From IMG/VR virus record IMGVR_UViG_3300023371_000094: DNA of 64,000 bases, one strand, 5' to 3'. Below the pieces are notes generated by a model, which saw nothing but the letters and a program-made list of their open reading frames with translations, searched no databases and was not told the DNA's origin. Made by a program: the position numbers and the translations under genes. Origin of the DNA: a virus (lineage: Duplodnaviria; Heunggongvirae; Uroviricota; Caudoviricetes). Positions 3,201-58,331 of this stretch are shown in pieces. Each line of letters opens with the position of its first letter. The stretch's first letter is position 1.

Positions 3201-4659
3201 ATGGCAGAAAGATGCTAACGAAGCTTATAATACATATTATAAATACTTACACAAAATTGCAATTGCAGAAGGTAACTTTGATTCTGTTTGGAAGTCCGTT
3301 ATTACGATGGAGCGCTTCCCGGATATACAAAAAACGCTTAAGCAATGGGCAAATGAAGGAATAGTTAGCACAGACAGCATAAAGAACCTTTATGACACCA
3401 ATCCCGCGTTCAAACAGATGGTTGATTATCTCATTGAGATTGGAATGTTCTCGTGGGAAGATGCCAGTGCCATAGAAGGTCTCGTTAATCAAATTAACGC
3501 AATGGCTGACGCGGCTAAGGTTCTTGCTGAAAAGTCGTTTCTGGACATATTGAATGATATAGAAGGAAAGTTTGACTCCTTGAACTCTGCGCTTGAAAGC
3601 ATTACCGACAATGGTATTGTCGCGTCTGATGCTATCGTTGATCTGCTCGATAAGTATCCCGATTTGCTGAAATATTTTGATATGACCAATCAAGGGTTCC
3701 AATTAAAAGGAGCTTATGCGGGTTGGAGCAATTCTGATATTCTCAATGATTTTGCTACGGGATATCTACAAAAATATGTTGATAAGCTTGCGGCGTGTGA
3801 GCAGGGAACAGAAAATTACAATATAGCTCAAGGCAATCTTAATAACGCAATTGCGGTCATGGCTACGTTATTGAGGAGTGCTGCTCTTGAAGAACAAACC
3901 GAAGCGCTCGAAAAACAAAAAGATGCTCTCGATGAAGAGCTTGATAGGTATAAAGAGCTTATCGATATGAGAAAAGACCTCTTGGAGACATATAAGGAGG
4001 AATTAGATTATCGTAAAGAACTGGAAAAGAAAGAGCAGAATATAGCAAGCCTGCAAACTCAATTGTCGCTGGCGCGTTTGGATAATTCCGAGGCAGGAAA
4101 AGCTCGCGCAAGAGAGTTAAAGGGTGAGCTTGATAAGGCGCAAGAAGAGCTGGACGATTTCACTTTAGAGCACGCCATCGACGTTTTAACTGAAGAACTT
4201 GATTCTTCATACGACGAGTACGAAAAGCTTATTAGCAGAGAAGTTGACAGAATCACTGCGGCAATCGATGGTCTTGCGGCAAGCTTAAACATTACCCCCG
4301 TTGTCCCCGCACCTACTGAGCAACACCATACCGGTGGCTTTGCTGGTAGCGGAGCAATTCTCAAAGACAACGAGATTTTTGCAAAGCTCTTGAATGGCGA
4401 ATTCGTTTCCACCCCCGCCCAAATGAGCAAGTTCTTGAGAGATACTTATCCCAAAATGCTTGGTATGGCGCAGAGTGGCAATGGCGGTATTCAGTATAAC
4501 GCGCCTATTGTCGCTATCAGATGCGACTCGGTTACCGAGGATACTATGCCTACCCTCAAGAAGGTAGTTAAGCAAGCGGTGGACGAGGTCAAGAAGGAAA
4601 TTGACAGCGCATTCAGCAGGACAGGCTACCGTAGGGAAGTCAATAAATTTTCAATATAA
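295..4659 (+). CDS. Phage tail tape measure protein (1454 aa)
   Basis: Strong RBS (aaaggaggagaaaaATG); very long alpha-helical, coiled-coil-rich sequence; central hydrophobic/TM-like segments (around nt 2200-2600); followed by the Dit/Tal gene order typical of siphophages. Confidence 0.9.
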   Translation: MADNVVGIRFGVAGGSSISGESGQLIKSQLEELSKQIHLKVNIDKNHFTQQLTSLKAELEKTLGDLKITIKTDNVTATQGNGGTSSGGAGGSSANAQASAYDNLRRQLEALSIAQQRQIKNDAEGGVTATIAEQKIRDLTAAYSGNRREALANGNITKEQADSLDQYAQSLDRALQMEQKRASNTDATSKLEMSYAKLQRNAQSLYTDGGFDKVIARSKEARQIVDDFNAKVNSAFTDDMSIEDKQAAVKKLNQEFIGTQSQLKKIQRETDTLGNKLKDTFTSKILQTFAYAIIGIATRALKQLYQNVVELDRAITDLQIASGKTREETEELIKAYSKLAKQLGATTLEVAQSADTWLRQGYSIEEANTLIYASMMLSKLGQIESAEASKALTSAMKGYKKEVEEATDIVDKFTAVDMEAAVSAGDIATAMAETATSADIAGVSMNKLIGYIATVAEVTQDGAESVGTFYKTLFARMNQVAAGNFIDEETGESLNDVETVLNELGIALRDTNGIFRSSGDVLDEVASKWENFDNVEQHAIATAFAGTRQQEKFIVLMENYGDALDYAATAADSAGTAQEKYTEAYVESIDASINKLTTSWESFSQTILSSDLVVTLVDIMSTLVNVIDAVLSFGDSMIPTLALVGVSVVLLGKLITKVFGGALTSWGDFVAAIQLGTQTIGQALLTLAKNPMLYITVLITAFTTFSDKMPPLAQIIVGAVMLIGTGIAIACKMANTAIWGFMSNNPLGWILLAITAVVLAITSVVKAIVGFANASTKAKEEAVDAAEASKEAWEDAAKAVEDLNEKLVSAKDRLKELQKQSNNGKITLVEQEEMERLEASIAQLEAEKALLEDVEQAKRKEAEKDASTAVGTILDEKLSDAYVQEDNTFWNGVGRSLASVLTLGISDAFGYGISDWSVKTTSAQDYVDQILGDWQNATEQQRNYVFDFYQQLSDQKDMLTYHSGENLEQWQKDANEAYNTYYKYLHKIAIAEGNFDSVWKSVITMERFPDIQKTLKQWANEGIVSTDSIKNLYDTNPAFKQMVDYLIEIGMFSWEDASAIEGLVNQINAMADAAKVLAEKSFLDILNDIEGKFDSLNSALESITDNGIVASDAIVDLLDKYPDLLKYFDMTNQGFQLKGAYAGWSNSDILNDFATGYLQKYVDKLAACEQGTENYNIAQGNLNNAIAVMATLLRSAALEEQTEALEKQKDALDEELDRYKELIDMRKDLLETYKEELDYRKELEKKEQNIASLQTQLSLARLDNSEAGKARARELKGELDKAQEELDDFTLEHAIDVLTEELDSSYDEYEKLISREVDRITAAIDGLAASLNITPVVPAPTEQHHTGGFAGSGAILKDNEIFAKLLNGEFVSTPAQMSKFLRDTYPKMLGMAQSGNGGIQYNAPIVAIRCDSVTEDTMPTLKKVVKQAVDEVKKEIDSAFSRTGYRREVNKFSI

Positions 4660-4707: not shown

Positions 4708-5490
4708 ATGTTTAACGCTACATACTTTACATATGACGGCGTGTATTCCGGGGCTTACAATCTGAAGATTGCTTCGTTTGACAGTGAAACCGTCGAAGAT
4801 ACTGCGGTGTTCGCGCCGACATTGAACATAACGAAATCGGCGAGAGCTCGTAGATTTTTGCACAACGGCATTGAATATGATGACGCTCCTGAATATACAT
4901 TCAGCATCATTTCTCAAGAAGCGATTTCGGATGCGCAAAGGAGAGAGATACTGACTTGGCTGGTTGGCAGAAATGATTTCAAAAAGCTTCAGATGCACCA
5001 GCCTGAGTTCGAAGACTATTATTACAACTGCGTTTTTACAAGCGCAGATTTAATATATGTCAGAGGAAGGTGCCACGGCTTTACCGTAACGGCAAAATTC
5101 GACTCCATATTTGCATATGGCAGACCGAAGAAAATAACCGTGACAGGAACTGGCACGACGCAGACCGTAAAAATTGTCAACAATTCCGATATCCCAGATG
5201 ATTACATCTATCCCATCGTAACTTTCACAATGACGGAAGAGGGAAATGTAACCATTCTGAATACGAGTGAAGCGGTTCAAGCTGAGTTCAAGTTTACTGG
5301 AGTAAGGAATACTGAAACAATCACGGTTGATAACGAACTCAAAATAATCGAAAGCACAATTGGAGGGGACAGGCTTTCCCTCTTTAATAAAAATTGGCTT
5401 AGGTTGCAGCACGGCGTTAATGTCCTTCAAATAACCCTTAAAGGAACGATGACGATTACAGTGCCGACCTATGCTATGATAGGATTCTAA
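4708..5490 (+). CDS. Distal tail protein (Dit-like phage tail component)
   Basis: 260 aa; immediately downstream of the tape measure gene and upstream of the Tal-like gene; RBS gaaaggag. Confidence 0.65.
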   Translation: MFNATYFTYDGVYSGAYNLKIASFDSETVEDTAVFAPTLNITKSARARRFLHNGIEYDDAPEYTFSIISQEAISDAQRREILTWLVGRNDFKKLQMHQPEFEDYYYNCVFTSADLIYVRGRCHGFTVTAKFDSIFAYGRPKKITVTGTGTTQTVKIVNNSDIPDDYIYPIVTFTMTEEGNVTILNTSEAVQAEFKFTGVRNTETITVDNELKIIESTIGGDRLSLFNKNWLRLQHGVNVLQITLKGTMTITVPTYAMIGF

Positions 5491-5503: not shown

Positions 5504-8500
5504 ATGGAATTCTTGTTTGATCACTATAAGAAGATTAAGGATCCAATCCTGTATCTTCACAATCCCGACATGAAACCCATTAGCGCAATCAAGGCGCGAA
5601 ACAGGAATTTCGTGTTGAGGTTCAATGACCTCTCGGAGCTTACGTTTGAAGCTCCAAAGTACGAAAAGAGTAAAGACGGAACGATGTTTGAACTTCCGTA
5701 CTACTCTCGTCTGGCGACCAAAAGACTTATCAAGATTGATGAAATCGGTTGGTTCCAGATTACTCAAGCGGTAGAAAACGAAGATGGCTTAACCGCCTAT
5801 ATGTCCATTACCGCGCAATCACATCAGTGCGCGTTCAAAGAGAAAGGATTTTTCTGCGAAGGAAGACTTTACAAATTCTACGATGAGTCCGATCCTTATG
5901 ACGTAAACTATGATTCAGATAAAGAAGATTCAATTCCTTCGGTTGTCGGTCAGCTTTATCAGCAGTTGGGCATCAAGGTGGCAATTTCGCCAGACGAATC
6001 CGAACCCGACGTGGACTACGGCGATTGGACAATCGTATGGGTTGACCACAGTTTGAAATATGTCAAAGGCAGTAAACAAAATGTTTGCAGAGCTTTTAAG
6101 GAGAACAGTGCTACGTACGCCTATGACTTTATGGTCAACTCTGTGGAAAACGCTTTTGAAGTAATCTTTGATTTCGACTTTATGCATCACGCAATTAAAG
6201 TCAAGAGAGTCGAAGACATTGCGCAGCAGACAAATATATATCTTTCGTTCGATAATGTAATGAATGAATTGCAGACTACTGAAAAGGCGGACGATATCGT
6301 TACCGTACTGAACTGCTCCGGTACAGATCTTGATATAAGAACTGTAAACCCAACGGGTACAAATTACATTGTTGACTTCAGCTACTATATGGATGAGATC
6401 AATTATCATTGGATGTCGCAAGCACTTATCGATAAGATTAAAGCTTGGAAGGCTCTTGTCGATAGCAAGAAGGCAGAATACACTGACCTCGTGTCCGATC
6501 TGCGCGAGGCGTATGAAGCACACACAGAAGCATCTTCTGAAACTGCATACACCAGAAAAAAGGTTCAAGACTTAGAAACTGTCAGAGACCAATATGCTCT
6601 TAAAACGGTACAAGATGATGCTATCTTTTTAGCCGAATCTTTTGATGTAATATATGATTGGGAACAACCTCCTACTGACGAAGGGTATGATATAGGTGAC
6701 GTTGTAATGTATGACGGAGAAACCTATAAATCTCTTAAAAGTAAAAACGTGTCTGTTCCCGACAAGACGAAGATAAATAACAATGACTGGAAGCTATATA
6801 GTATTCGCAAAAGTTTAGACGAGAGTACGTTCTATGCTACATCACATCCAAAGCCCGGGGACGTTTGGCAGTTTTCAACCACTCAACCAACATTAAGCAG
6901 TGGAACTTTCGCAATTAGTTCAGGGGTGACGAATACCTTGGCTGGCGTTTTAACAGATTGGGCTGACGAAAAAGACATTTACTTTATAGATAGCGACTTG
7001 AAAACATACTGTAAGGTTGTCCGTGGTAGTAAGGTTGATCAAACTACAGGCGAAGAGATTCAGCATGTCGCGGCAATTGAAAGATATAGCACTTATTCCG
7101 ATGTGTCCAGATGGCTAACTGCTTGGGGAAAACTTGATGACGAACAACAAGCGCTCGTTGATGAGTATGAGGCAAACGCAAATGAAATTGCCGTAGATAT
7201 GCAAGCGATTGCCGAAGAAGCCAATATTTTGAGTTATTTCAAAGATACCCCAGCCCTATTATCAGAATTACGCCACTATTGGATAGAGGGAGATTATAAC
7301 AATGACACACTTGCTGTTTTAGATAGTACCAAGCCAGAGGAAGCAATTGACTTGGCGAGAGAGCTTCTTGCTTGTGGCGAAAAAGAGATTGCTCGTGTCT
7401 GCCAGCCTCGATTTTCCATTAGTGTGAATTCTATAAAATTCATCAAAATATATGCCTTCCGTCAATTTATGTATGAACTTGCATTGGGCAAGGTAATTAC
7501 TATTGAGAAAACGAAGGACGTATATTATTATCCCGCATTGACACAGATGAGATTTAGCTTGGAAAACGGCGACGATACTTTTGAACTTGTTTTTTCAAAT
7601 GCTCTTAAATTGAATGACTGGGGTTATACTTTTGCCGATTTAATAACATCGGCTTCAAATACATCTAAAAATGTCATCTCTAATTGGAATGAACTTATGG
7701 ATTACAGCACGCATAAGAATTCCATCCAAGAACTGTTACTTAACCCCCTTGATAAAACATTGCGTCTTGCAGAGAAAAATATGAGCAACCAAGAATTTGT
7801 TATTGACAATACGGGCATTCTTGGAAGAAGGCGCAAGGCTGAGGATTTATTTGAAAAAGAACAGGTGCGTATGATAAATAACGTTATCCTCTTTACGGAT
7901 GACAGTTGGCAAACTGTTAAAACGGCTCTTGGTAAGGTTGCATATACCGACTATGATGGTGATGGGAACCCCATCGAGAAGCAAGCATACGGATTATTAG
8001 CGGAAGTAATAGTTGGTTCTTTGATGCTGGGCAATCAGTTAAAAATTTCCAACGAAGGCGGATATATTACCCTCGATCAAAACGGCATAACGATAAAAAA
8101 TAGTCAGAGCAAAGCAACTGTTTTTCAAGCAAATGTAACGGGAGACGCCTACTTTTACGGAAATATTTCTGTAAGAAGCCTGATAAGCAACAATAACACA
8201 TTTGAAATTGACGAAGATGGAAACGTTACCTGCAGCAATATAACGATTACAGGTGGCGTAATTCAATCTGCTGGTTTTGATGCTGATGAAAAAAGAGAAA
8301 GCGTGTCTGGCAACGTTGTTGACACACCTAAAAACCCTACTCAAATCCTTCGACCTTCCGAGGGTACCACTGGACACTTCAGCTACATCATGAGAGGGAC
8401 ATTTACGGTTGATTCAGCAGACCAATTGACCGACGCAGCTATAAGCCAAGTTAGATATAAATACAACGGTCATATAACCAGTGGCAATTTTACTAATGCC

Positions 8501-9853
8501 GTAGTTACATTTTCGGGTAATGTGGTAACTTATGAATGCGTGTTGACTACATCAGCAATTCTTTTCAACACTATGAACGGATTGTATCCGACGGAATTAT
8601 CGGCTGTGATTGCTTGGGGTGGGTATAAGGTAACTGGATTTACCTGCACATCGGGCGCAAAGATTGATTTGAGCGCTTCGCCATATATAGTATTCCCGAA
8701 TTTCACAGTTGATGCTGACGGCATATTGACTGCGACTGGTGCTAATATCGAAGGCACCATTAACGCAATAGATGGTAATATTGGAGCGTTTCAAATTACT
8801 GGTGATGGACTTGAGAGTGAGTATATTAAGCTTAACGCGCAGTCCATCTTTTTCCCAACGCAGGCAATATTTAATTTGGCTAACGACGTTACTATATATA
8901 ACGAGGACACCGTATCTTACATAGCTACCTCTGGAAATAGAGATTTCGAAATAAAAAACATTGGTGGCGCGGGTATAAGATTCAAAGCAAATACGGCAAG
9001 CGAAACTGTAACGCAAACTATAACCCTCAATAATTTTGTCGGCAGTGAACAAGATGAAGATGAATATGTTGGATCAGGATTCGCTTGTAGCGTAACTTGC
9101 AATTATGGTATAAGCAACAGCGGAGTTCTTCTTGTACCTTATCACGTGACATTCTATCTCAAGTATGCTATTCAAGAATGGACATTACTCAATGGGTGGG
9201 TTGACAAAACTACTTACGAGAAAGAACTCTCATATGATATCCCAAAGGGAAGCAATTCGGGAAGTATAAAATTTGAGCAGGTTCATATAAGAAAAAACAG
9301 CACGCAAAAGTTTGTTGTTAAGGGTGTTTCTATCGATAAAAGTTCTTATGGCAGCAGCGTCGCTTTTAGTTCGGTTAACATCAGTGCAACAAACAATATT
9401 TTATACTCTCTTGGAAGCTTTTGCCCGAATACTTCCGCAACTTCTTCGTCTGGATATCTTTTGGGCGATGATACTCACGTTTGGCGTAGTGTTAGAGCGT
9501 ATACTGCCTCAATCACTACCAGTGACGCACGACAAAAACACAGCGTAGAACCACTTTCGGAATCTTATGAAGAGTTTTTTGATGGGCTGGAACCTGTTTC
9601 TTTCATCTATGAAAAGGCGGACAGTAACAGGCGGCACGTTGGTTTTATCGCTCAGGACGTTGAGCAAAGCCTACTTAGAGCCGGTATTAGCTTACAAGAT
9701 TTTGCCGGAGTATGCATCGGATCCGATGAAGATAAAACATATGGATTGCGTTACGAGGAATTTATCGCTATAAATACTTTGCAAATCCAAAAACTAAAGG
9801 CACGAGTTGCCGAACTTGAAAAAGAAATAAAGGAACTTAAAGGAGAAATCTAA
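5504..9853 (+). CDS. Tail-associated protein (Tal / prophage tail endopeptidase family N-terminus) with a C-terminal S74-type intramolecular-chaperone autoprocessing domain
   Basis: N-terminal region resembles the phage minor structural protein / tail endopeptidase family; C-terminal motifs TTSDARQKHS...HVGFIAQDVEQ plus a terminal coiled coil (ARVAELEKEIKELKGEI) are typical of peptidase S74 chaperone domains of tail fibres and spikes. Confidence 0.8.
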   Translation: MEFLFDHYKKIKDPILYLHNPDMKPISAIKARNRNFVLRFNDLSELTFEAPKYEKSKDGTMFELPYYSRLATKRLIKIDEIGWFQITQAVENEDGLTAYMSITAQSHQCAFKEKGFFCEGRLYKFYDESDPYDVNYDSDKEDSIPSVVGQLYQQLGIKVAISPDESEPDVDYGDWTIVWVDHSLKYVKGSKQNVCRAFKENSATYAYDFMVNSVENAFEVIFDFDFMHHAIKVKRVEDIAQQTNIYLSFDNVMNELQTTEKADDIVTVLNCSGTDLDIRTVNPTGTNYIVDFSYYMDEINYHWMSQALIDKIKAWKALVDSKKAEYTDLVSDLREAYEAHTEASSETAYTRKKVQDLETVRDQYALKTVQDDAIFLAESFDVIYDWEQPPTDEGYDIGDVVMYDGETYKSLKSKNVSVPDKTKINNNDWKLYSIRKSLDESTFYATSHPKPGDVWQFSTTQPTLSSGTFAISSGVTNTLAGVLTDWADEKDIYFIDSDLKTYCKVVRGSKVDQTTGEEIQHVAAIERYSTYSDVSRWLTAWGKLDDEQQALVDEYEANANEIAVDMQAIAEEANILSYFKDTPALLSELRHYWIEGDYNNDTLAVLDSTKPEEAIDLARELLACGEKEIARVCQPRFSISVNSIKFIKIYAFRQFMYELALGKVITIEKTKDVYYYPALTQMRFSLENGDDTFELVFSNALKLNDWGYTFADLITSASNTSKNVISNWNELMDYSTHKNSIQELLLNPLDKTLRLAEKNMSNQEFVIDNTGILGRRRKAEDLFEKEQVRMINNVILFTDDSWQTVKTALGKVAYTDYDGDGNPIEKQAYGLLAEVIVGSLMLGNQLKISNEGGYITLDQNGITIKNSQSKATVFQANVTGDAYFYGNISVRSLISNNNTFEIDEDGNVTCSNITITGGVIQSAGFDADEKRESVSGNVVDTPKNPTQILRPSEGTTGHFSYIMRGTFTVDSADQLTDAAISQVRYKYNGHITSGNFTNAVVTFSGNVVTYECVLTTSAILFNTMNGLYPTELSAVIAWGGYKVTGFTCTSGAKIDLSASPYIVFPNFTVDADGILTATGANIEGTINAIDGNIGAFQITGDGLESEYIKLNAQSIFFPTQAIFNLANDVTIYNEDTVSYIATSGNRDFEIKNIGGAGIRFKANTASETVTQTITLNNFVGSEQDEDEYVGSGFACSVTCNYGISNSGVLLVPYHVTFYLKYAIQEWTLLNGWVDKTTYEKELSYDIPKGSNSGSIKFEQVHIRKNSTQKFVVKGVSIDKSSYGSSVAFSSVNISATNNILYSLGSFCPNTSATSSSGYLLGDDTHVWRSVRAYTASITTSDARQKHSVEPLSESYEEFFDGLEPVSFIYEKADSNRRHVGFIAQDVEQSLLRAGISLQDFAGVCIGSDEDKTYGLRYEEFIAINTLQIQKLKARVAELEKEIKELKGEI

Positions 9854-9854
9854 A

Positions 9855-10214
9855 ATGAAATTATCAACAATAATCAATGCACGGAGCGTGCTGGAAGGAT
9901 TTGCCGACAAAGAAGATATCGGCGCACATCTTTCTTACTGGATGACAAGGTTCATCGTTAAAACTCAAAGCGATCAAGAGTTTTACACAGCAGAAGTACG
10001 CAAGATATTTAGCAAACACGCCGAAACCAGAAAAGACGGGACAAGTATCGTTCCCAACGAGAAGGTATCAGATTTCCAAGCCGACGTTGCAAAACTCGGC
10101 GAAACGGAAGCTGAAGATCCGGGCATTCGTTTCAAGCTTGCGGAGCTTGCCGACAACCTTAAGTTGTCGATGAAGCAGATGTTCCCCTTGCTTGATTTTA
10201 TCGAGGAAGAATAA
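9855..10214 (+). CDS. Hypothetical protein with acidic C-terminus (possible tail fibre assembly helper)
   Basis: Translationally coupled to the Tal gene (stop and start 1 nt apart); followed by a rho-independent terminator. Confidence 0.45.
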   Translation: MKLSTIINARSVLEGFADKEDIGAHLSYWMTRFIVKTQSDQEFYTAEVRKIFSKHAETRKDGTSIVPNEKVSDFQADVAKLGETEAEDPGIRFKLAELADNLKLSMKQMFPLLDFIEEE

Positions 10215-10386: not shown

Positions 10387-13300
10387 ATGAAAATTACACA
10401 AGAATTGACCTTGGATACCTCTCGTGAAAATGCGTACAAAGTTGTGCACGCAAAGCAGTACGACGAGGATTCAAGATTTTTAAAAGTAACAATCACCACT
10501 CGCGGAGAAGAAATCGACGTTCCTTCTGGCGCAACCGTAGTATTCGGCGTAAAGAGAGCCGACTTGGAAAGCCACGACTTTGCGGGTGTTGTAAACGCCG
10601 ACGGTACCGTTACTGTACCTCTTACGAACTGGATGCTTCAGGTCGCAGGAAAATGCGTTTGTGATGTTTCGATCATCAAGGACGGCGAGAAATTCTCAAC
10701 CTTGAACTTCAGTGTTCTCGTTGAATACGCTCCCACTAACGAAACCGACATCACTGAAGACGAGGGATACGATGTACTTGTCAGCCTCGTTGAGCGCGTT
10801 GAGAATGTTGTTGACCACATCGACGAGCTTGACCAGAGAATTGCAGAGGCAGAGAGTTCTGCTACCGCGGCTGCAGAGTCGGCTGAGGCTGCATCCGAAG
10901 CTCTCTTAAATGCTCAAGACCAGATCGAAGCGGCGCAGGCACTTGCAGATAAAGCGGAAGGTTCTGCGGCAGATGCCCAAAGGTATGCTAACCAAGCTAA
11001 GGGTTACCGCGACGAGTTCGCGGATACCATTGATCAGGTTGCAGATGCAAAGGGCGAGTATGACAGCCTTGACGAGCGTATTACTGCAATGCAGACAGAA
11101 ATCGAGGGCGGCGTTCCCAAAGACATCGAAGTGCGCGAAACCGAAGACGGCAAGGAACTTATGGTTCTTGTTGACGCGGAGGGCGATCCCATTGGAGAGG
11201 GAACTGAACTTCCCGACAGCGGAGCTATGGGACTTGAGTCCGCAACCGTTACAGTTGGCGACGCTGAAATGGTTGAGGTCTGGCTGAAGGATAAAAACGG
11301 CGAAAAGATCGAGGGAAGCGAAACACGCTTTGCCGCAGGTTCTGGTGGCGGAGGTGGCGGTGGTGGTTCAACCACTATTACCGTTGAGAGAATTACACCT
11401 TCCCCTTTGATTATCACACCTACCGACGCGGCAGACATCGAGTTTAACTTCTCGTCTGTGGATACCGACGGACAGACCGTTGACGGTTATTACACTTGGA
11501 AGAATGGCTCGAAGGTTCTTGCAAGCGGTACTCTTAATCAGGGTTACAACAGCTTTGACGCAAGACAACTGCTCGGTCAGGAACTTCCTATCGGTACCAC
11601 AAAGTTCTCACTGACGGTTAACGATGACGCGGGTAGTATGCTTACCCGTATCTGGAACGTTCAGGTCGTAGACATTCGTCTTGAACCTTCCGATGCAAAC
11701 CTTGCAAAGAAGACGTATACCGTTGGAGAAAGTATTCTCTTTAACTATGTTCCTTATGGTTCCGTTGATAAGCGTGTGCACTTCAAGATGGATGGCACAG
11801 AAATTGGCTACGAAGACACTACCGCATCTGGTAGCTCGAAGAGATTTACTATCCCTGCGCAGGCTCACGGCGCTCACTTGTTTGAATGCTACATCACCGC
11901 TTCTATCAGTGGTAAGGATGTAGAAACAGAACACATCTACTACGACCTTGTTTGGTTCGATGAAGATGCTGGAACCCCCGTTATCGGTTGCGCTTATCGT
12001 AACGACCTTTATGGCGCGATTACGCTGAAACAGTTCAATACGATGATTATTCCTTTCTATGTTGTTGATCCCAATACGAGTACGCCCACAATCACAAAAG
12101 AGGTTGACGGCGAAGTTGTTGGCGAGGAAACTCTGGAAAGTTCCGAGGGCGAATGGAGCGTTAAGCTTACCGAGGTTGGCGAGCATCACCTCATCATTCG
12201 TTGCGGTGCTACATACGTTGAGATCGTAATCAATACGACCGATATCGGATTCGACGTCGAAACCGTTGACGGATACGTTTTTGACTTTAACCCCGTTGGA
12301 CGCACCAACAGTAGCGCAAACAGGCTTTGGTCTGACGAAAACAACCCCGCCATCAGTATGAGTGTTTCTGATAACTTCGACTGGCAAAACGGCGGATATC
12401 AGATTAGCAGAGATGAAGAGGGAAATGCTATTCCCGGCGAGGAATATTTCTGCATTAAATCTGGTACATATGCGACAATCAATTACAAGATGTTCGCAAA
12501 GGATGCCAAGGAAAGCGGTTCTGCTTTCAAGGTAATCTTTAAAACTACAAACGTTCGCAAAGACAACGCAAGGTTCCTGACCTGCTCTAACGGCTTGGCG
12601 GACGATAAAGTTGGACTTGTTATGAATGTCCACGAGGCATACATTAACACCAGCGCAGACGAGTTGTATGTTCCTTACAGTGAGGAAGATGCAATCGAGT
12701 TTGAATGTAATATTTGCCCCATTGGGGACGGCGAAGATGTTACTTCCTACATTATGACCTACGAAGACGGCGTTGGCTTGAGACCTTTGCTCTACGATAA
12801 CAACCACGTTATCAAGCAGTACGAGCCTGTCGAAATCGTTATTGGTTCTCCTGACTGCGATGTTTACATCTACAGAATGAGAGCTTATGAGTTCAACTTG
12901 ACGGATAGCGACATTCTTCAGAACTTCATCACTGACGCACGTACTTCTGACGAGATGATTTCTCGCCACGACAGAAACGAAATCTATGATGAAAACGGCA
13001 ACCTTACTCCCGAGATTCTTGCTGAGAGATGCCCTGACTTGAGAATTATCAAAGTTGAGGCTCCTTGGTTTACGAACGACAAGGACAACAAGATTGACGG
13101 CACTACGGTTCAGATGATTTACAAGAACGGAGATCCCGTTCTCGACAACTGGACTTGCACCGGCGCACGCCATTCGGGACAGGGTACATCGTCTAACGAA
13201 TACGGATACGCGGGAAGAAACCTTGACCTTATTATGGACAGAGATACATCACTGTTCACTTTCAGCGACGGTACAACCGGCAAGACAATCACCCTCACAA

Positions 13301-16300
13301 GAGATTCCGTTCCTACCGACTATCTCAACGTTAAGGTTAATATCGCATCTTCTGAGAACGCAAACAATGCGTTGATGGCTAACAGATATAACACATTCAA
13401 CCCCTTCAAGCGTTCAGCGAAGGTCGCAGACTCCAAGGTTAAAGACTGTATGGAGTTCCACAACTGCGTAGTTTTCATCAGAGAAGCTGACGAAGACCTT
13501 AGCACTCACAGAGAGTTCAATGATACTAACTGGCATTTCTATGCATTTGGTAATGTGGGCGACTCTAAGAAGACGGACGATACTCGTGTAAACGACAAGA
13601 ACGATCCCAAAGAGTGCGTAATCGAAATCACAGACTACAACGTTGCTCTCGCAGAGTTCCCGACAGGTTACGGCAATGCTATCTGTACTCCCGCAAACTG
13701 GAAGGCTGGAAACACCGCTTACGACGATCTCTATGCTCCTTATAAATATAAGGAAGGAGAATTCAAGTCCTTTGGTAACGGTTCTTACGAGTTCCGCTAT
13801 GAGAAGAAGGGCATTACAGACGAGGAAAGACAAGCCAATATCGACGCTTGGAGAGACTTCTATAAGTTCGTAGTTACTTCTACGGATGAAGAATTCCACG
13901 ATAACCTTGAGAATTACTTCGTAGTTGATTCTGCGCTTTATTACTACCTGTTTACCGAGCGCTATACGATGGTTGATAACCGTGCAAAGAACAGCTTCTG
14001 GCACTACGGAAAGTGCGACGATGGCGTTTACAGATGGGATTTGACCTTCGGATACGACTTTGATACCTCTCTGGGTATTGACAACACCGGTAAGCTTGTG
14101 TTGCCTTATGGTAAAGAAGACGTTGACTTCTACGTTGACGGAGATCCTTCATCTTCTTATATCTACAGAGCTGCGGAAAGCAAGTTCTTCTGCAGAATCC
14201 GCGACCTCTTCAAGACAGAGCTTATGGCTATGTATGTTAACCGCGAAGACGTTAACGCTTGGAGCTCTAACGGACTTATCACTCAATGGGATAACTCTCA
14301 GAACCAATTCCCCGAGGAATTGTGGAGAATTGACATTGAGCGTAAGTACCTTCGTACTTACAAAGGTGTTTCTATCGATAACAGTATCGCAGGCGCTTCT
14401 AACCCTCGTTTCTTCAGAGAAATGATGAACGGTAGAAAGAAGTATCAGCGTAGACAATTTGAGAGAAACCAAGAAATCTACTTCGCAACTAAGTATTTTG
14501 GTAAGACGGCAACGGCTGACCAGATAATGTTGCGTTTCAATAACCCTGTTGGCGCAGTAGTTCCCAAGGACTTCACGCTCTATCTGACTCCTTATTCCGA
14601 TATGTATATCGGCTTCAGCTTCTACAACGGACACAAGGATAACGTAAGAGCAAAGGCTGGCGTTGAATACACCATTCCTTATCCCGAAGGACTCGAAGCT
14701 GCGGATATTACGCTGATCTACGGTGCATCGTTCATTCAAGGCATCGGCGACCTTTCCAAGTGTTATGTCGGCGATAACGACTTCTCTAAGGCATCGCGCT
14801 TGCAGAGACTTACGATTGGTAGTACGACCGCAGGCTACACCAACACATTTATGACTACTCTCGCGCTTGGTAACAACAAGTTGCTTGAGTATCTGGACAT
14901 CAGAAATATGACAGGTTTGAACTCTATCGTTGACTTGACGAAGTGTTATAACCTTCTTGAGCTGTATGCCGAGGGTTCTTCTATCAGCGGCGTTGCATTC
15001 GCTAAAAACGGTAAGGTAACAACGGCGCATCTGCCTGACACTATCAACACGTTGAGAATGCAGAACCTCCAGAACCTTACGGACTTCCAGATGTCTACGG
15101 ACAGTCTTCAGCACTTGACTATTGAACATTCGTTGATTGACGAAAAGACGATGGTTGAGAAATCGGTTGATACGCTGAGAACCTTGACGCTCGCAGGTAT
15201 CGACTGGACGGGCGATAATGCTTTGGCGACCACTGAGTTGCTGAATGACATTTTCGACCTCAATGAATCAAGTCTCTCGGGACAAGTCTACATCAGCGGA
15301 CAGGTAAGAAGCCAAGAATTGGCGAACTACGAGGAAGCTTGGGACGGTCTCGTTGTAAGATATAACTCCGCTAACCTTATCGAACAGTATAAAGTAACAT
15401 ACGTTGATGATACTGGCACAGAGCTTTGTTCCTGCTATGTAGATAGAGGACAGACTCCGCCTGATCCTGTTGCAACAGGACTTCTTGACGATGTTCCCAC
15501 TAAGGCAAGCACGCCTCAGTACAGCTATGCTTTCGCATCTTGGAATGAGCTTACAAGCCCCGTTCTGGAAGCAAGAGTTGTTACTGCTGTATTTACTGCT
15601 ACCGTTCGCACTTATACCGTCGCTTGGTATGATGCTGAAGGTGGCTTGAAGCTTGACGAGCAAACCGTGGAATACGGTTCCGATGCGGTTTATGCAGGAG
15701 AAACGCCCGCAAACGAATTCGATACGAGCGTATATTCGGGTAAGATGTTTGCAGGTTGGGATAAGAGCACAGGTTATGTGCGCGGTAATATGAGTGTATA
15801 TGCCGTTTGGGAGGTAGCAAATCTGCCTTCTGCCGGCACGAAAGACCTTAGCGAAATGAACGTTGCAGAAATCTATGCGGTGGCAACTGCTGCGGCAAAC
15901 GGACTTGCAAACGTTGACGAATACTTCGTTGATAAGGACTATCACGATATTACTATGGGTACGGACTTGAATTTCTCGAACATCGAGAGCAAGGAAATCG
16001 TACCTGTTGATACGCCTCTTGTTTTGGACGGAGAAACTGCTATTGACACAGATGTATATCTGTTCGGCGACAACGAGAAATCCTTCACGATGGCTATCGA
16101 CTTCACTTATGCGTGCGACTCTACCGATACCAATGCAACCCTTGTATCTGCTTTCGAGGAAGAGGGAAGCGAAGGATTCAGGCTGAGGTTCAATAGCTAT
16201 CCGAGCATTCAGTGGGGCGACAAATCTCAGATTGTAGGTAACTACGTAAGCTCGAAGCACTATCGTGATATTGTTGTTATCAGACACCGCGCTGGTGAAA

Positions 16301-17292
16301 ACCATCTCTATGTATATAGCGGTTGTCAGACCACTAACGGTAACGGCGCAAGGTTTGCGGATGCAATCACTCGTACTCTTCTTACGAGAACCAGAGCCAC
16401 TGCTACCAATGTACCGGTTACTCTCGGTGCGGTTAGATATGGTGACGGCGGATGCGACTATTACGCCAAGGGTATTATCCACTGGTGTAAGGTTTGGTAC
16501 GATGACCTTGGAGAAACCAATGCATACGAATTAGCATCTTGGTGTCGTGAGCCTTTGAGAATGGAATTCTGTGGTACGGATAGATACAGACTTGCAGGAA
16601 CAGGAACGAGCGCGAAAGCAAAGATTTCGCTTATAGCGAACAACCTGCTTGACGGTCGTGGATACTGGATGAACAGCACGAACACTAACGCAGGCGGTTG
16701 GGATGCGAGCTTGATGCGTACATTCTGTAATACGCGCCTTGTCAATGCACTTCCTATTCAGTGGCGTAACATACTTAAGACGGTTAAGATTAGCGCGAGC
16801 GCGGGTAGTCAGTCTACCGAGATTGTTATTTCGGAAGACAAGATTTACCTTGCAGCTAACAGAGAAGTCGGCGGTTATACAACCGAACCTTATGCGAGCG
16901 AAGGTACTGCTATCTCGTGGTTTACGAGCAATGGTAGACGTTTGAAATTCAGAGGTCGTATGGTCGAGGATGATGCTACCTTCTATAGCGCGGCAGATGA
17001 TCCCAGTTTGGATCCCGCGAATGACGTCAAAGAGGGAGATATTTGGATCAATACGAGCAATGACTCTATTGGTTATATGTACCTCACTCAGGCGGAATTG
17101 GATAAGTATAATCTAACCCCGAACTTTACGGCATCTATCGGAGGCGGATGGATTATTGCCAGTGGCTGGTGGGGGCGCTCTCCGTATGCGAGCAACTCCA
17201 CGCACTTTATGCTTGTCTACGGCTACGGTGGCGCCAGCAGCTACAACGGCGCGTACGGCGTCTATGGCGTGTGCCCCTGCTTCTCAATCTAA
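10387..17292 (+). CDS. Giant baseplate/receptor-binding protein (2301 aa): BppU-like N-terminal domain, Ala-rich coiled coil, poly-Gly linker, central CotH-like domain, C-terminal C-type-lectin-fold DGR variable region. Target gene of DGR-1.
   Basis: N-terminus MKITQELTLDTSRENAYKVVHAKQYDEDSRFLKV resembles the baseplate upper protein BppU_N family; GSGGGGGGGGS linker at nt 11341-11370; segment DNRAKNSFWHYGKCDDGVYRWDLTFGYDFDTSLG resembles the CotH NxxxN..Y.Y...WDxDxxFG signature; the C-terminal 45 codons are the VR matching TR-1. Confidence 0.85.
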   Translation: MKITQELTLDTSRENAYKVVHAKQYDEDSRFLKVTITTRGEEIDVPSGATVVFGVKRADLESHDFAGVVNADGTVTVPLTNWMLQVAGKCVCDVSIIKDGEKFSTLNFSVLVEYAPTNETDITEDEGYDVLVSLVERVENVVDHIDELDQRIAEAESSATAAAESAEAASEALLNAQDQIEAAQALADKAEGSAADAQRYANQAKGYRDEFADTIDQVADAKGEYDSLDERITAMQTEIEGGVPKDIEVRETEDGKELMVLVDAEGDPIGEGTELPDSGAMGLESATVTVGDAEMVEVWLKDKNGEKIEGSETRFAAGSGGGGGGGGSTTITVERITPSPLIITPTDAADIEFNFSSVDTDGQTVDGYYTWKNGSKVLASGTLNQGYNSFDARQLLGQELPIGTTKFSLTVNDDAGSMLTRIWNVQVVDIRLEPSDANLAKKTYTVGESILFNYVPYGSVDKRVHFKMDGTEIGYEDTTASGSSKRFTIPAQAHGAHLFECYITASISGKDVETEHIYYDLVWFDEDAGTPVIGCAYRNDLYGAITLKQFNTMIIPFYVVDPNTSTPTITKEVDGEVVGEETLESSEGEWSVKLTEVGEHHLIIRCGATYVEIVINTTDIGFDVETVDGYVFDFNPVGRTNSSANRLWSDENNPAISMSVSDNFDWQNGGYQISRDEEGNAIPGEEYFCIKSGTYATINYKMFAKDAKESGSAFKVIFKTTNVRKDNARFLTCSNGLADDKVGLVMNVHEAYINTSADELYVPYSEEDAIEFECNICPIGDGEDVTSYIMTYEDGVGLRPLLYDNNHVIKQYEPVEIVIGSPDCDVYIYRMRAYEFNLTDSDILQNFITDARTSDEMISRHDRNEIYDENGNLTPEILAERCPDLRIIKVEAPWFTNDKDNKIDGTTVQMIYKNGDPVLDNWTCTGARHSGQGTSSNEYGYAGRNLDLIMDRDTSLFTFSDGTTGKTITLTRDSVPTDYLNVKVNIASSENANNALMANRYNTFNPFKRSAKVADSKVKDCMEFHNCVVFIREADEDLSTHREFNDTNWHFYAFGNVGDSKKTDDTRVNDKNDPKECVIEITDYNVALAEFPTGYGNAICTPANWKAGNTAYDDLYAPYKYKEGEFKSFGNGSYEFRYEKKGITDEERQANIDAWRDFYKFVVTSTDEEFHDNLENYFVVDSALYYYLFTERYTMVDNRAKNSFWHYGKCDDGVYRWDLTFGYDFDTSLGIDNTGKLVLPYGKEDVDFYVDGDPSSSYIYRAAESKFFCRIRDLFKTELMAMYVNREDVNAWSSNGLITQWDNSQNQFPEELWRIDIERKYLRTYKGVSIDNSIAGASNPRFFREMMNGRKKYQRRQFERNQEIYFATKYFGKTATADQIMLRFNNPVGAVVPKDFTLYLTPYSDMYIGFSFYNGHKDNVRAKAGVEYTIPYPEGLEAADITLIYGASFIQGIGDLSKCYVGDNDFSKASRLQRLTIGSTTAGYTNTFMTTLALGNNKLLEYLDIRNMTGLNSIVDLTKCYNLLELYAEGSSISGVAFAKNGKVTTAHLPDTINTLRMQNLQNLTDFQMSTDSLQHLTIEHSLIDEKTMVEKSVDTLRTLTLAGIDWTGDNALATTELLNDIFDLNESSLSGQVYISGQVRSQELANYEEAWDGLVVRYNSANLIEQYKVTYVDDTGTELCSCYVDRGQTPPDPVATGLLDDVPTKASTPQYSYAFASWNELTSPVLEARVVTAVFTATVRTYTVAWYDAEGGLKLDEQTVEYGSDAVYAGETPANEFDTSVYSGKMFAGWDKSTGYVRGNMSVYAVWEVANLPSAGTKDLSEMNVAEIYAVATAAANGLANVDEYFVDKDYHDITMGTDLNFSNIESKEIVPVDTPLVLDGETAIDTDVYLFGDNEKSFTMAIDFTYACDSTDTNATLVSAFEEEGSEGFRLRFNSYPSIQWGDKSQIVGNYVSSKHYRDIVVIRHRAGENHLYVYSGCQTTNGNGARFADAITRTLLTRTRATATNVPVTLGAVRYGDGGCDYYAKGIIHWCKVWYDDLGETNAYELASWCREPLRMEFCGTDRYRLAGTGTSAKAKISLIANNLLDGRGYWMNSTNTNAGGWDASLMRTFCNTRLVNALPIQWRNILKTVKISASAGSQSTEIVISEDKIYLAANREVGGYTTEPYASEGTAISWFTSNGRRLKFRGRMVEDDATFYSAADDPSLDPANDVKEGDIWINTSNDSIGYMYLTQAELDKYNLTPNFTASIGGGWIIASGWWGRSPYASNSTHFMLVYGYGGASSYNGAYGVYGVCPCFSI
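17152..17287 (+). repeat. DGR-1 variable region (VR) at the 3' end of the giant RBP gene
   Basis: 136-bp match to TR (18261..18396); about 23 differences, every one at a TR adenine (e.g. TR aac to VR ggc/tac/agc/cac; gag to ggg; aat to tat/ctt; tga to tgc); a hairpin ctcgac-ttcggt-gtcgag at 17314..17331 lies just downstream. Confidence 0.9.
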
Positions 17293-17436: not shown

Positions 17437-18231
17437 ATGTCGGTTTTAAAAAGCAGGAGAACACTATCGAAATTTGAATTCGAACATACTTTCGCAACAT
17501 TCTATCAATTTTCTGCCGAAAGAATGGCGTCCGTCGCCAAGCGCAGGCACAGATGGATTTGTTGGAAGATGGAAGTCAAGCTCAATAAGATATTCAACGA
17601 GCTGATGGAAATTAACGAAGGCTATTTCGAGAGTGCGACCAAAAGAGAAGAGATAGATGAAATAATCAAAACAGCAATAGAAGATCTGAGAGATCTCGAA
17701 AAGCCGATGATGGTGTTTTGGAATATCGAACAATACGAAATCAGACGAATGGTGGCGTGGGCATCGATGCTGAATGCAGAAATAGATATACTATCTTCAA
17801 TGCGAAGCACAGTAGCCCCAGCCGAGAAGGTACAGGTTTTAGATTGGAGAACGATTTTGAATGTAAAGTTTTTAAGCAACATTTTCGAGCTTCACCGAAT
17901 AATCCACGGCAAGGTAGTAAGGGTTCCAAGTAAGTACGATGATACCTATTCATCTTTGCTGATTGATTTGATTGATGAGGCGTTGTATTCCTTAGTTAAG
18001 GCAAACCGAAAAATGCCGACGACAAAGAAGGAATACGATACAAGAAAGAAACACATCTCCAACGCCATATCCTGCTTAAGAAAAATGCAACGACCACTTG
18101 TGTTTTTCTTTAACGTGATGGGATACAGCGAGCGATCTTTGAATGAAATATCTGAAAAAATCAGTGAAGAGTTGAAGATGCTGTATGCTTTGAATAAATC
18201 AGATAAGACCAGATTTGGAAAGCTTGAATAA
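17437..18231 (+). CDS. avd: Avd-like accessory variability determinant of DGR-1 (264 aa, about twice the usual Avd size)
   Basis: Sits between VR and TR; basic helical protein; N-terminus MSVLKSRR matches the MSVLKKDR of the 137-aa Avd-like protein upstream of RT-2. Confidence 0.55.
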   Translation: MSVLKSRRTLSKFEFEHTFATFYQFSAERMASVAKRRHRWICWKMEVKLNKIFNELMEINEGYFESATKREEIDEIIKTAIEDLRDLEKPMMVFWNIEQYEIRRMVAWASMLNAEIDILSSMRSTVAPAEKVQVLDWRTILNVKFLSNIFELHRIIHGKVVRVPSKYDDTYSSLLIDLIDEALYSLVKANRKMPTTKKEYDTRKKHISNAISCLRKMQRPLVFFFNVMGYSERSLNEISEKISEELKMLYALNKSDKTRFGKLE

Positions 18232-18260
18232 TAAATAAATTTGGGTTGGTTATATTCTGC

Positions 18261-18396
18261 ATTATTGCCAGTAACTGGTGGGAGCGCTCTCCGAATGCGA
18301 GCAACTCCACGAACTTTATGAATGTCAACAACAACGGTAACGCCAACAACAACAACAACGCGAACAACGTCAATGGCGTGTGCCCCTGATTCTCAT
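18261..18396 (+). repeat. DGR-1 template repeat (TR), adenine-rich (about 20 AAC codons in the VR frame)
   Basis: Non-coding, between avd and RT; identical to VR except at adenines; ends with ggcgtgtgcccctgattctca (the IMH-like 3' end shared with VR). Confidence 0.9.
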
Positions 18397-18691: not shown

Positions 18692-19981
18692 ATGGATAAT
18701 TACGGACGAATACAAGTAAGGATAGCCCGTGATAAAGCAAGGAGACGGGCAAAAAAGGAAAGAATGAACGCCGAATACGATAATTTTGACAAGGTTATCC
18801 GAGTGCAGAATTACGTTGAGGCATTGAACAAATGTCGGAAAGGAGTCGCTTGGAAAGGTACAGTTCAGGAGTATCTCCAGAATGGAGTCACTGAAATGCA
18901 CAAAGTAACGACAGCGCTTAAAAAGGGAGAGATTCCTAAGCTGGCGAGTAGTAGACGAATTGAAATCTATGAAAGAGGCAAGAAGAGAATTATTGTTCCG
19001 GTTACTATTAAAGATAGAATGACACAGCGCGTTCTATGCGACAAAGCGTTGACTCCCGTTTTATGCAGGTCGTTGATTTACGACAACGGAGCCAGTCTTG
19101 CAGGAAAGGGCGTAGAATTTACGCGCGACAGGCTGGAATTTCATTTAAGACGTGCCATTGCGGAATACGGGAACGATTTTCACGCTCTTGTTTTTGATTT
19201 CAAGAGCTTTTTCGACAGCATACCTCATCGAACTTGCTGGAAGGTTTTGAACGAACACTTCGAAGATGAGCGTATTAAGAAATTAGTTATGAACATAATT
19301 TGCTCCTATCAAGAGCCAGAGATAATGGAAATACAGGATAGGAGAGAAAGGGAAGAAAAGCTGAGGATATTACATAGCTTTCAAGGGAAGGGCATTTGCT
19401 TGGGAAGTCAAATATCTCAGGTGATGGCTTTATCCGTCCCCAGCAAATTAGATCATTTTATTAAGGATAAGATGCGCGTGAAGCATTATATCCGATATAT
19501 GGATGACGGAGTTATTTTCTCGAACGATAAAGAGTTCTTACACGAGCTTCGTGCGAAAATGCGCGAGGTGGCAACTGAACTCGGTCTTACGTTCAACGAG
19601 AGAAAGACTCGTGTCGTCAGAATATCCAGAGGCTTTACCTTTATGAAGGTAAGATACTGGGTGACATCAGAAGGGAAAGTAATAAAGAAGCTGACGCGCT
19701 CGGGCATCACACGAATGCGCCGGAAGCTTAAAAAGTTAGCACGCTTGGTAAAGAACGGAACGATAACACTTGATGATGTGTATAACTCAATGCAGTCGTG
19801 GGTAGCACATTCAAAAGTTGCAAGGTCGTACCACACTTTAAGAAGTATGCTGAGCTTATATTACAAGCTCTTTGGTGGGTATAAGTCCCACAGAAAATAT
19901 ACGAAACAAGGATGGGTTAAAAATGAAATTTTACAAAATGATAAATGGCGAGAATTTCGTTGGAATTGGAACGTCGCTTGA
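18692..19981 (+). CDS. DGR reverse transcriptase (RT-1)
   Basis: RT motifs including LGSQISQ (the DGR-specific SQ in motif 4) and YMDD (RYMDDGVIF); about 300 bp downstream of TR-1. Confidence 0.9.
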   Translation: MDNYGRIQVRIARDKARRRAKKERMNAEYDNFDKVIRVQNYVEALNKCRKGVAWKGTVQEYLQNGVTEMHKVTTALKKGEIPKLASSRRIEIYERGKKRIIVPVTIKDRMTQRVLCDKALTPVLCRSLIYDNGASLAGKGVEFTRDRLEFHLRRAIAEYGNDFHALVFDFKSFFDSIPHRTCWKVLNEHFEDERIKKLVMNIICSYQEPEIMEIQDRREREEKLRILHSFQGKGICLGSQISQVMALSVPSKLDHFIKDKMRVKHYIRYMDDGVIFSNDKEFLHELRAKMREVATELGLTFNERKTRVVRISRGFTFMKVRYWVTSEGKVIKKLTRSGITRMRRKLKKLARLVKNGTITLDDVYNSMQSWVAHSKVARSYHTLRSMLSLYYKLFGGYKSHRKYTKQGWVKNEILQNDKWREFRWNWNVA

Positions 19982-21111: not shown

Positions 21112-21525
21112 ATGTCGGTACTTAAAAAGGACAGAGGCGAAAGCGCGGTTCAGTTCTTGGAAACTGCGCGGAATTTAGAAATATTCACCCTCAGAACTTG
21201 TGCCAAATTTCCAAAGCGTTATACATTTTTAATTACTGCTGAGATAGCTCAGCTATCCAGAAGCATTTACAACAATGTAAAGTCTGCGAATAGCATATTT
21301 CCTACAAATCAATCAGAGGTGCAAATGCGCCGCAACTTCTTTACGAAGGCAAACTGCGATCTTCAATGTCTGGTATCCCAACTGGACGTTGCGAAGGTTA
21401 TGTTCGGAGAAGAGGTCAAGGTGGGAACTTGGTGCCAATGGATGGATTTGATAGAGGAAGAAGCAAAGCTAATTTCAGCTATCAAGAAAATAGATAAAGA
21501 ACGCTATAAGGGCTTACCTCTTTAA
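21112..21525 (+). CDS. avd: Avd-like accessory variability determinant of DGR-2 (137 aa)
   Basis: Typical Avd size; immediately upstream of the TR-like segment and RT-2; N-terminus homologous to the avd-1 product. Confidence 0.6.
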   Translation: MSVLKKDRGESAVQFLETARNLEIFTLRTCAKFPKRYTFLITAEIAQLSRSIYNNVKSANSIFPTNQSEVQMRRNFFTKANCDLQCLVSQLDVAKVMFGEEVKVGTWCQWMDLIEEEAKLISAIKKIDKERYKGLPL

Positions 21526-21549
21526 GCGTTCTTTTTATATGGGTTATAA

Positions 21550-21700
21550 GCCGTTTTGTCTTTGTTTTGCGTTCCCCTTACCGTGGTAACAGTAACTACT
21601 TCTGCTACGTGTATGGCGGTGACTTCAATTACAACTACGCCAGCAATCACTACGCTGTCGCCTTCGGATCTTGCACAATATGCCCGACAAAGTAACCTTC
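21550..21700 (+). repeat. Candidate DGR-2 template repeat (TR-2), a diverged homologue of TR-1/VR-1
   Basis: Non-coding between avd-2 and RT-2 (the ORF-track N-terminal extension of 21556..23046 is not real coding). In the VR-like frame it reads RSPYRGNSNYFCYVYGGDFNYNYASNHYAVAFGSCTICPTK*, compared with VR-1 RSPYASNSTHFMLVYGYGG...GVCPCFS. Contains AAC/AAT codons and ends in a stop, as TR-1 does. Confidence 0.55.
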
Positions 21701-21885
21701 AAGGTGAAATCTGTGCGTGTGCAAAAGGGGCATATAACCCTTCCTTCGGGATAAAGAAATACGTTGATGTGGTCTATCGGACGCTTCTTGCATTGCTCGC
21801 GATTGTGGTAGCGAGTTTAATGATAGGTACCACTATGCAGTTATTCCCACAATATTTTACTGTACTGGGTATAAAGGAATTAAAA

Positions 21886-30861: not shown

Positions 30862-30874
30862 ATTTCTTTCTCCT

Positions 30875-56497: not shown

Positions 56498-56573
56498 TGG
56501 TCGGAGCAACGGGACTCGAACCCACAACATCTCGCTCCCAAAGCGAGAGCTCTACCATTGAACTATGCCCCGA
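56498..56573 (-). tRNA. tRNA-Pro (anticodon TGG)
   Basis: Manual cloverleaf: anticodon loop TTTGGGA, GGTTCGAGTCC T-arm, CCA encoded. Confidence 0.75.
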
Positions 56574-56574
56574 T

Positions 56575-56656: not shown

Positions 56657-56658
56657 CG

Positions 56659-56733: not shown

Positions 56734-56736
56734 AAA

Positions 56737-57373: not shown

Positions 57374-57376
57374 ATA

Positions 57377-58329: not shown

Positions 58330-58331
58330 AT

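Follow-up and report, generated by a model that had tools for sequence, protein, structure and literature searches.

We analysed a 64,000-nucleotide stretch of DNA from a tailed phage (Caudoviricetes; IMG/VR record IMGVR_UViG_3300023371_000094), hereafter called the window, and focused on its gene at 10387..17292 (+), which encodes a giant tail-fibre or baseplate protein and is the target of a diversity-generating retroelement (DGR). The gene starts with ATG and runs uninterrupted for 2301 amino acids (aa). This open reading frame (ORF), proposed in an earlier note made from the letters alone, was confirmed, the N-terminal peptide given there being aa 1-34, and all four module assignments of that note stand, namely BppU_N, CotH, a linker and a DGR-diversified lectin-type tip. 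From the N-terminus, the modules are BppU_N, a helical stalk, a G-S-G8-S hinge, a β-rich body, a CotH-type domain, a leucine-rich-repeat (LRR) domain with InlB-like B-repeats, a CBM40/ConA-like lectin domain, and DUF6273 with the variable repeat (VR) of the DGR. A Pfam scan of the whole protein gave three matches, to BppU_N, DUF6273 and CotH, the last of which was under its cut-off. A protein identical to the window copy was present on 20 metagenome contigs of up to ~104 kb, and a megablast search of 50,697 phage records with the gene returned no match. In the reading that we consider fairly likely, the product is part of the virion: it forms a very long side fibre on an SPβ-like tailed phage, large (~100 kb) and infecting gut or rumen Clostridia, and has a DGR-diversified tip and a kinase-like domain that is most likely active.

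N-terminal anchor, stalk and body

The N-terminus (aa 5-127; 10399..10767, +) matched BppU_N, the baseplate-anchor domain PF10651, with an E-value of 1.2e-10 and 41.7 bits against a Pfam cut-off of 23.1 bits, the match spanning profile positions 3-128 of 142; the fragment alone gave E 8.9e-12. The BppU-like N-terminus predicted earlier was thus borne out by Pfam, and aa 1-250 also matched tail-fibre families of PHROG. The next segment (aa ~130-245; 10774..11121, +) is a helical stalk that is rich in Ala and Glu and probably forms a coiled coil, with weak coiled-coil-type Pfam matches to FliJ, ZapB, DUF745 and Alanine_zipper; where Ala-rich coiled coils had been expected in the plural, this one helical segment was seen but not several. 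The hinge, GSGGGGGGGGS (aa 318-328; 11338..11370, +), was read from the translation. The Gly linker is therefore present as predicted, but its run has eight Gly instead of nine, and it begins at 11338, 3 nucleotides (nt) before the position first assigned to it. The hinge was kept in nine of the ten listed members of the 90%-identity cluster, the tenth being N-terminally truncated, and a G/S run of at least 7 occurred in 40 of 106 long family representatives; in 15 listed examples, the run was at residues 135-1046, on the N-terminal side of the conserved body. The β-rich body itself (aa 329-879; 11371..13023, +) belongs to no named family, and matched phrog_14959 (E 2.6e-72) and phrog_24896 (E 1.8e-35), which are PHROGs of unknown function.

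The N-terminal anchor is swapped as a module (window 10387-10990), as seen in three relatives. In the homologues P0385 and P0386, 96 of the first 200 residues are unlike those of the window protein; beyond residue 200, P0385 is nearly identical to it and P0386 is more diverged throughout. In locus L060, BppU_N is 95% identical to that of the window, as is the reverse transcriptase of a second DGR (RT2, see below) at 97%, whereas the kinase-like domain is just 26% identical.

A CotH-type domain with invariant catalytic residues

The CotH-type kinase-like domain (aa ~880-1395; 13024..14571, +) was recognised by Pfam, an AlphaFold model and a fold search. PF08757 scored 22.0 bits on the whole protein (residues 1134-1234), under the cut-off of 23.8, and 25.0-25.6 bits on the excised region, so that the predicted CotH likeness is marginal in Pfam. 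The AlphaFold model of aa 861-1460, made with 64 homologues, had a predicted local distance difference test (pLDDT) score of 88.4 and a predicted template modelling score (pTM) of 0.90. In this model, the domain has the CotH atypical protein-kinase fold, and the fold search returned, as further matches, the other atypical kinases CtkA (10.3), PI4K2A, HipA and Fam20; the predicted structure of the central region is compatible with the kinase-like CotH fold that the earlier note had envisaged. There is next to no chance that the CotH likeness is a fortuitous motif match in a generic β-rich fibre protein: the score below cut-off on the whole protein would fit such a match, but 7 of 21 homologues matched CotH in Pfam by themselves (best E 1.9e-7) with collinear motifs, and the fold search already refutes it.

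The signature that had drawn attention to the domain, YYYLF...DTSLG, was located at aa 1185-1230 (nt 13939-14076), inside the range given for it, and is predicted to comprise the catalytic loop and a DFG-like DxD motif. Specifically, the catalytic-loop motif D1197-N-R-A-K-N1202 (13975..13992, +) would be equivalent to CotH D228...N233, and Y1223-D1224-F-D1226 (14053..14064, +), a putative DFG-like metal-binding motif, to CotH W250-D251-Y-D253. Note that this residue mapping is arithmetic on Pfam profile coordinates, not a printed alignment. The B. cereus CotH fragment aligned without gaps to PF08757 positions 142-220, and the window fragment covered positions 145-220 with, on balance, four residues more, all of which are explained by a β-hairpin that is longer in the window protein and connects the catalytic loop to the DxD motif. 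D1197 and N1202 fall on profile positions 187 and 192 (DGFVHN in B. cereus CotH), and Y1223-D1224-F-D1226 on positions 209-212 (WDYD in CotH), D1224 being at 210; in 46 Bacillus CotH clusters, whose sequences have 363 aa, the equivalents of D1197, N1202 and D1224 carry the numbers 228, 233 and 251. A B. subtilis CotH query matched PDB 5jd9_A (E 1e-140), and the analyses used the PDB-derived B. cereus sequence. According to PMC7821199, which cites Nguyen 2016, CotH activity was abolished by D228Q and by D251A.

Conservation was examined in 96 family representatives that are 33-94% identical to the window protein (median 49%). The catalytic residues D1197, N1202 and D1224, whose conservation the earlier note had proposed to check, were kept in all 96. 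Around the catalytic motifs, D1197, K1201, N1202, F1204, Y1223, D1224, D1226, G1230, N1233 and G1235 were invariant (96/96), and so were Q932-G-T-x-S936, Y939, N945, K983, N985, K1061, E1080 and R1137 in the N-terminal part of the domain, which is probably the N-lobe. This invariance is the pattern predicted for a working active site.

A putative group I intron at the DxD motif of relatives

The window gene has no intron. On contig L001, however, the homologous gene is cut directly after the codon equivalent to D1226 (window nt 14064/14065) by a 1061-nt intervening sequence (8943-10003), which carries a 261-aa ORF with HNH-like motifs read by eye and with no Pfam match. In the P1 pairing, ACUUCGAU at the end of the 5′ exon is matched to GUCGAAGU, the terminal pair being U·G, and a 4-base-pair P10 pairing and a terminal G are also present; predicted splicing restores YDFD-TALGIDN. 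Rfam Intron_gpI matched the 5′ 233 nt when the 5′ 276 nt were scanned (E 0.0048, 19.8 bits, below the gathering score), and an Rfam scan of the intervening sequence as a whole found nothing. Among the 120 best homologues, 48 start at T-x-L-G-I-D-N, and 14 proteins end at YDxD. We do not regard the ~1000-aa homologues with a start at residue 1227 as genes of their own, because the junction restores YDFD-T[AS]LGIDN exactly and P1, P10 and the terminal G are present. An intron at the DxD motif appears to be widespread among relatives.

These data bear on whether the CotH-like domain is instead non-catalytic and serves as a scaffold or for binding, be it as a pseudokinase or, in the manner proposed for CotH proteins of Mucorales, as an adhesin of the invasin type, so that the fibre would be purely an adhesin. 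The nucleotide-binding residues of the N-lobe are unmapped, the domain sits amid lectin, LRR and CBM modules, and ATP is scarce outside the cell, all of which would suit such a role. Nevertheless, we regard it as unlikely, since the three equivalents of the CotH catalytic residues are invariant in 96/96 relatives while the rest of the domain drops to 33% identity, and a polar block (K1201, D1226, N1233, the Q932-G-T-x-S936 loop, K983, K1061, E1080 and R1137) is invariant too. Pseudokinases usually lose at least one of such residues. Furthermore, it is precisely at the DxD codons that the homing intron of the relatives inserts, as is typical where a site is under strong constraint. An active phosphotransferase, the reading that we prefer, is most likely because the full CotH catalytic signature is kept.

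Adhesion modules and the DGR-diversified tip

The model of aa 1227-2301 had a pLDDT of 82, and its best Foldseek matches were the InlB internalin domain with its B-repeat (E 1.4e-6); legume lectins matched as well. According to the model and Foldseek, the kinase-like domain is followed by a small β-sandwich and then by the LRR domain (aa ~1396-1660; 14572..15366, +). Two InlB-like B-repeat modules come next (aa ~1661-1815; 15367..15831, +), their boundaries being taken from the secondary structure of the model, and then a ConA-like/CBM40-like lectin domain recognised by fold matches (aa ~1850-2063; 15934..16575, +). The protein ends in the DUF6273 tip domain (aa 2095-2301; 16669..17289, +; Pfam E 2e-14, cut-off 23.5), with an insertion of ~65 residues (aa ~2190-2255) that was modelled with low confidence. 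DUF6273 has been described as a C-type-lectin-like domain and a frequent DGR target (PMC10743442, PMC11792537).

The variable repeat of the first DGR, VR1, covers codons 2255-2300 (17149..17286, +) and was delimited by comparison with its template repeat, TR1 (18258..18395, +), which has 43 adenines and runs of AAC codons. Of the 138 nt compared, 24 mismatch between VR1 and TR1, and at 23 of these TR1 has an adenine, for which VR1 has G in 13 cases, T in 7 and C in 3. TR1 is adjoined by RT1, a DGR-type reverse transcriptase (RT) gene (18692..19981, +; RVT_1 E 1e-17; phrog_1423 E 3e-78), whose alignment shows the motifs LGSQISQ and YMDD. The adenine-specific mismatches and the adjoining RT substantiate the proposal that this gene is a DGR target. 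A 264-aa ORF lies between VR1 and TR1, in the position of Avd (17437..18231, +), and had no Pfam or PHROG match. It is possibly an Avd-like accessory protein, which is uncertain: its first half has a weak collinear similarity to the Avd encoded elsewhere in the window (E 0.048), and both proteins begin with MSVLK, so that it may be a double-length Avd.

Compared with the window protein, P0387 and P0390 of its 90%-identity cluster have 14 and 3 residue differences, respectively, all of them in aa 2201-2301 and none in the first 2200; variation in the other members is densest in aa 2201-2301 too. DGR 1 is active in nature, since natural variants hypervary only in the last ~100 residues, which hold the VR.

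Family distribution and exchange of modules

A profile search with the kinase domain found 2026 representatives at 50% identity, 603 of them with E <=1e-30, and the length was mostly 2000-3500 aa among the 150 representatives listed. In GTDB genomes, the family was found at 71 loci, mostly of gut or rumen Clostridia, many of them metagenome-assembled genomes, and including cultured strains of Ruminococcus and Clostridium, among them Ruminococcus sp. YE282 and Clostridium transplantifaecale. The kinase-like domain was present at all 71 loci, LRR at 66, the body (aa 330-860) at 65, the B-repeat and the lectin-like tip (DUF6273) at 49 each, the ConA-like domain at 37, a nearby DGR RT at 19 and BppU_N at 6. 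From this census, body, kinase and LRR form the conserved core, and the parts that can be exchanged are the tip, the DGR and, most of all, the N-terminal anchor. In fact, the BppU_N start was shared by just one of the 106 long representatives, and an iterative hidden Markov model search for the BppU_N N-terminus among these 106 found the protein's own cluster only. Scanning seven other N-termini gave one Mtd_N match above cut-off, one Mtd_N match below it and one Phage_fiber_rpt match above cut-off. Because relatives match Mtd_N or Phage_fiber_rpt at their N-termini, the family as a whole looks like tail fibres.

Genome context

The target gene is in the distal-tail module. Upstream are a tape measure gene (PhageMin_Tail, 295..4659), followed by a Dit-like DUF6558 gene (4708..5490) and then by a gene for a 1449-aa minor-tail/fibre protein with an S74 chaperone (5504..9853); a 119-aa ORF separates the latter from the target gene. 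Together with the BppU_N anchor, the position right after the Dit-like and tail-fibre genes is the reason why we infer a virion protein. Alternatively, the product could be a non-virion effector kinase that is made during infection and manipulates host signalling, division or sporulation, its intracellular target being tuned by the DGR. Such a role was proposed for PC_00012 in the excerpted text of Roux et al. (bioRxiv 10.1101/2020.04.01.020958), Bacillus CotH acts inside the mother cell (PMC7821199), and the hosts here are Clostridia, many of which form spores. It is nevertheless very unlikely for the window protein, whose N-terminus is a baseplate anchor and whose gene directly follows tape-measure, Dit and tail-fibre genes. 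In addition, two of the seven other N-termini match a tail-fibre family above cut-off (Mtd_N, Phage_fiber_rpt), and the remaining modules are adhesion folds of extracellular type (InlB LRR with B-repeat, CBM40). A location on the virion accords better with this context.

Further upstream are the SPβ-like virion genes YonB, YomW and YomV. Directly downstream of the YomW- and YomV-like genes, ~1-3 kb upstream of the window start and between two short tail-region ORFs, we observed a GIY-YIG/NUMOD3 endonuclease ORF (L004 6569-8989), which could point to another intron, or to a free-standing homing endonuclease, within a structural gene.

A second complete DGR, whose target is remote, lies at window 21112-23046 (+). 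It consists of an Avd gene (21112..21525, +; phrog_3206), the template repeat TR2 (~21567-21673, +) and RT2 (+), whose ORF runs from 21556 to 23046, with the RT1-like region starting at codon 111 (nt 21886), and which is 36% identical to RT1. Its variable repeat, VR2 (window 63940-64000, -), is ~42 kb away on the opposite strand, where it lies at the 3′ end of a stand-alone DUF6273 gene for 239 aa (contig L006 6361-7080) that extends past the end of the window. Over 107 nt, TR2 and VR2 share 89% identity, and of 61 nt of VR2 compared between the window and contig L006, 5 are different. Adjoining this second target, just past the high-coordinate end of the window and on the minus strand, are genes for a third RT (464 aa, with YADD and without the DGR SQ motif) and an RNase H (L006 3997-5391 and 5909-6346); the third RT may be of a retron-like or defence kind.

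Among the products of the replication module are Pol III α, a DnaB-primase and the anaerobic ribonucleotide reductase NrdD (29110-31002, -). The window also has two tyrosine integrases (23481-24668 and 45219-46220, both -), a gene of nicotinamide adenine dinucleotide (NAD) salvage, NAMPT/NAPRTase (53658-55259, -), and 12 tRNA genes (56498-59019, -) for Pro, Leu (three), Gly, Lys, Gln, Ser (two), Thr, Met and Trp. The integrases, NrdD and the NAD-salvage gene fit a temperate large phage of strict anaerobes.

Comparison with known systems

Contrary to what the earlier note stated, the combination of CotH with a DGR-diversified lectin is not new, because excerpts of three papers already describe this architecture. 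Category f1 of Wu et al. 2018 (PMC5758913) comprises ~2000-aa DGR targets with CotH, Laminin_G_3 and a CLec3 VR, PC_00012 of Roux et al. has the same architecture, with one example of 2284 aa, and Benler et al. 2021 (PMC8008677) noted, as unstudied, CotH fused to a hypervariable C-type lectin in phages. Like the targets of f1 and PC_00012, the window protein comes from a phage, falls in the length class of ~2000-2300 aa and combines CotH and a ConA-like/Laminin_G domain with a VR of lectin type at the C-terminus; going by these descriptions, it almost certainly belongs to the same family as f1, PC_00012 and the Benler fusions. The excerpts mention neither a BppU_N anchor nor a place in the tail module in their descriptions of these targets, and the anchor, rare in the family, may be new for them. 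Neither the invariance of the catalytic residues and the intron at the DxD motif, nor the LRR/B-repeat (InlB-like) and CBM40-like modules, nor a second DGR with a remote target is reported in the excerpts. Furthermore, PC_00012 is treated there by Roux et al. as non-structural, whereas the evidence from the window points to a tail fibre.

Compared with the Bacillus CotH spore-coat kinase (PDB 5JD9/5JDA; PF08757), the domain has ~10% identity, and the alignment shows variable-length insertions in the window family at aa ~1070-1150 and within the 1207-1222 hairpin. CotH is a free protein of 360 aa, whereas the window domain is embedded in a 2301-aa fibre. The N-terminal part resembles lactococcal TP901-1/Tuc2009 BppU in its PF10651 N-terminus, its place in the distal-tail module after Dit and the helical segment that follows. 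BppU is a ~300-aa adaptor that holds separate receptor-binding proteins; unlike it, the window anchor is fused to ~2000 aa of putative enzymatic and adhesion modules. As in Mtd of Bordetella phage BPP-1 and in DUF6273-type targets (tentaclins, PMC10743442; Faecalibacterium phages, PMC11792537), the DGR rewrites a C-terminal lectin-like ligand-binding surface of a receptor-binding protein, and the VR is at the C-terminal end of DUF6273, as in the DUF6273-type targets. However, Mtd and those targets have a few hundred residues and no enzyme-like domain.

Proposed function

We propose that BppU_N docks the fibre on the baseplate beside Dit and the tail-fibre protein. The helical stalk and Gly-rich hinge would then carry a conserved 'payload' of body, kinase-like domain, LRR, B-repeats and CBM40-like lectin, with the C-type-lectin-like DUF6273 tip as the fibre end. 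Through RT1, possibly helped by an accessory factor from the 264-aa ORF, the DGR would copy TR1 into VR1 with adenine-specific errors and thereby rewrite ~16 codons of the tip's ligand-binding surface, so that the fibre could track changing receptors or glycans. For the CBM40-like and tip domains, sialic acid would be the foremost ligand candidate. The kinase-like domain would most likely be an active phosphotransferase on the fibre and not a fossil. The substrate could be a polymer on the surface of the cell or of the spore, or else a protein of phage or host that is modified in the cytoplasm while virions are assembled.

Several points weigh against this interpretation. Sequence likeness to canonical CotH is marginal (22-25 bits in Pfam), and PDB sequence searches with the whole protein, a 21-sequence profile and a trimmed 9-sequence profile gave no CotH match, returning only noise from the Gly linkers of single-chain variable fragments. 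With hhalign, comparison of the 96-sequence family profile with B. cereus CotH alone or with a 120-sequence Bacillus CotH profile was not significant (probability <=2%) and placed the catalytic loop ambiguously, which is why the residues were mapped through Pfam coordinates. The ATP-binding Lys and Glu of the N-lobe remain unmapped in the domain, and the ATP supply outside the cell is uncertain. The putative coiled coil and trimeric state rest on weak matches, and the clear Avd is not beside TR1 but belongs to the second DGR. Finally, Roux et al., in the excerpt, treat PC_00012 as an exception among structural targets and propose manipulation of host signalling.

In a further-reaching version of the proposal, the virion would display an active kinase, and the DGR would reprogramme where that kinase is directed. 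The tip, CBM40 and LRR would bring the active site to changing ligands on the host cell, on spores or in gut mucus, and a surface substrate would be phosphorylated during adsorption or persistence. We consider this version distinctly unlikely, and we know of no phage for which an enzyme with a diversifiable address has been shown.

As it stands, the window protein is a well-characterised example of an already reported architecture, with an enzyme function predicted from conserved residues. The family of giant phage proteins to which it belongs is large (2026 clusters at 50% identity) and widespread in phages of gut and rumen Clostridia, and to our knowledge no member has been studied experimentally. 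The working hypothesis shifts from a host-signalling effector, the earlier view, to an enzyme-bearing tail fibre, and D1197, N1202 and D1224 are the residues that we name for mutation. If the kinase is active on the virion, it would be a rare phage receptor-binding apparatus that carries a phosphotransferase, and the first case of a DGR retargeting an enzyme rather than a simple binder.

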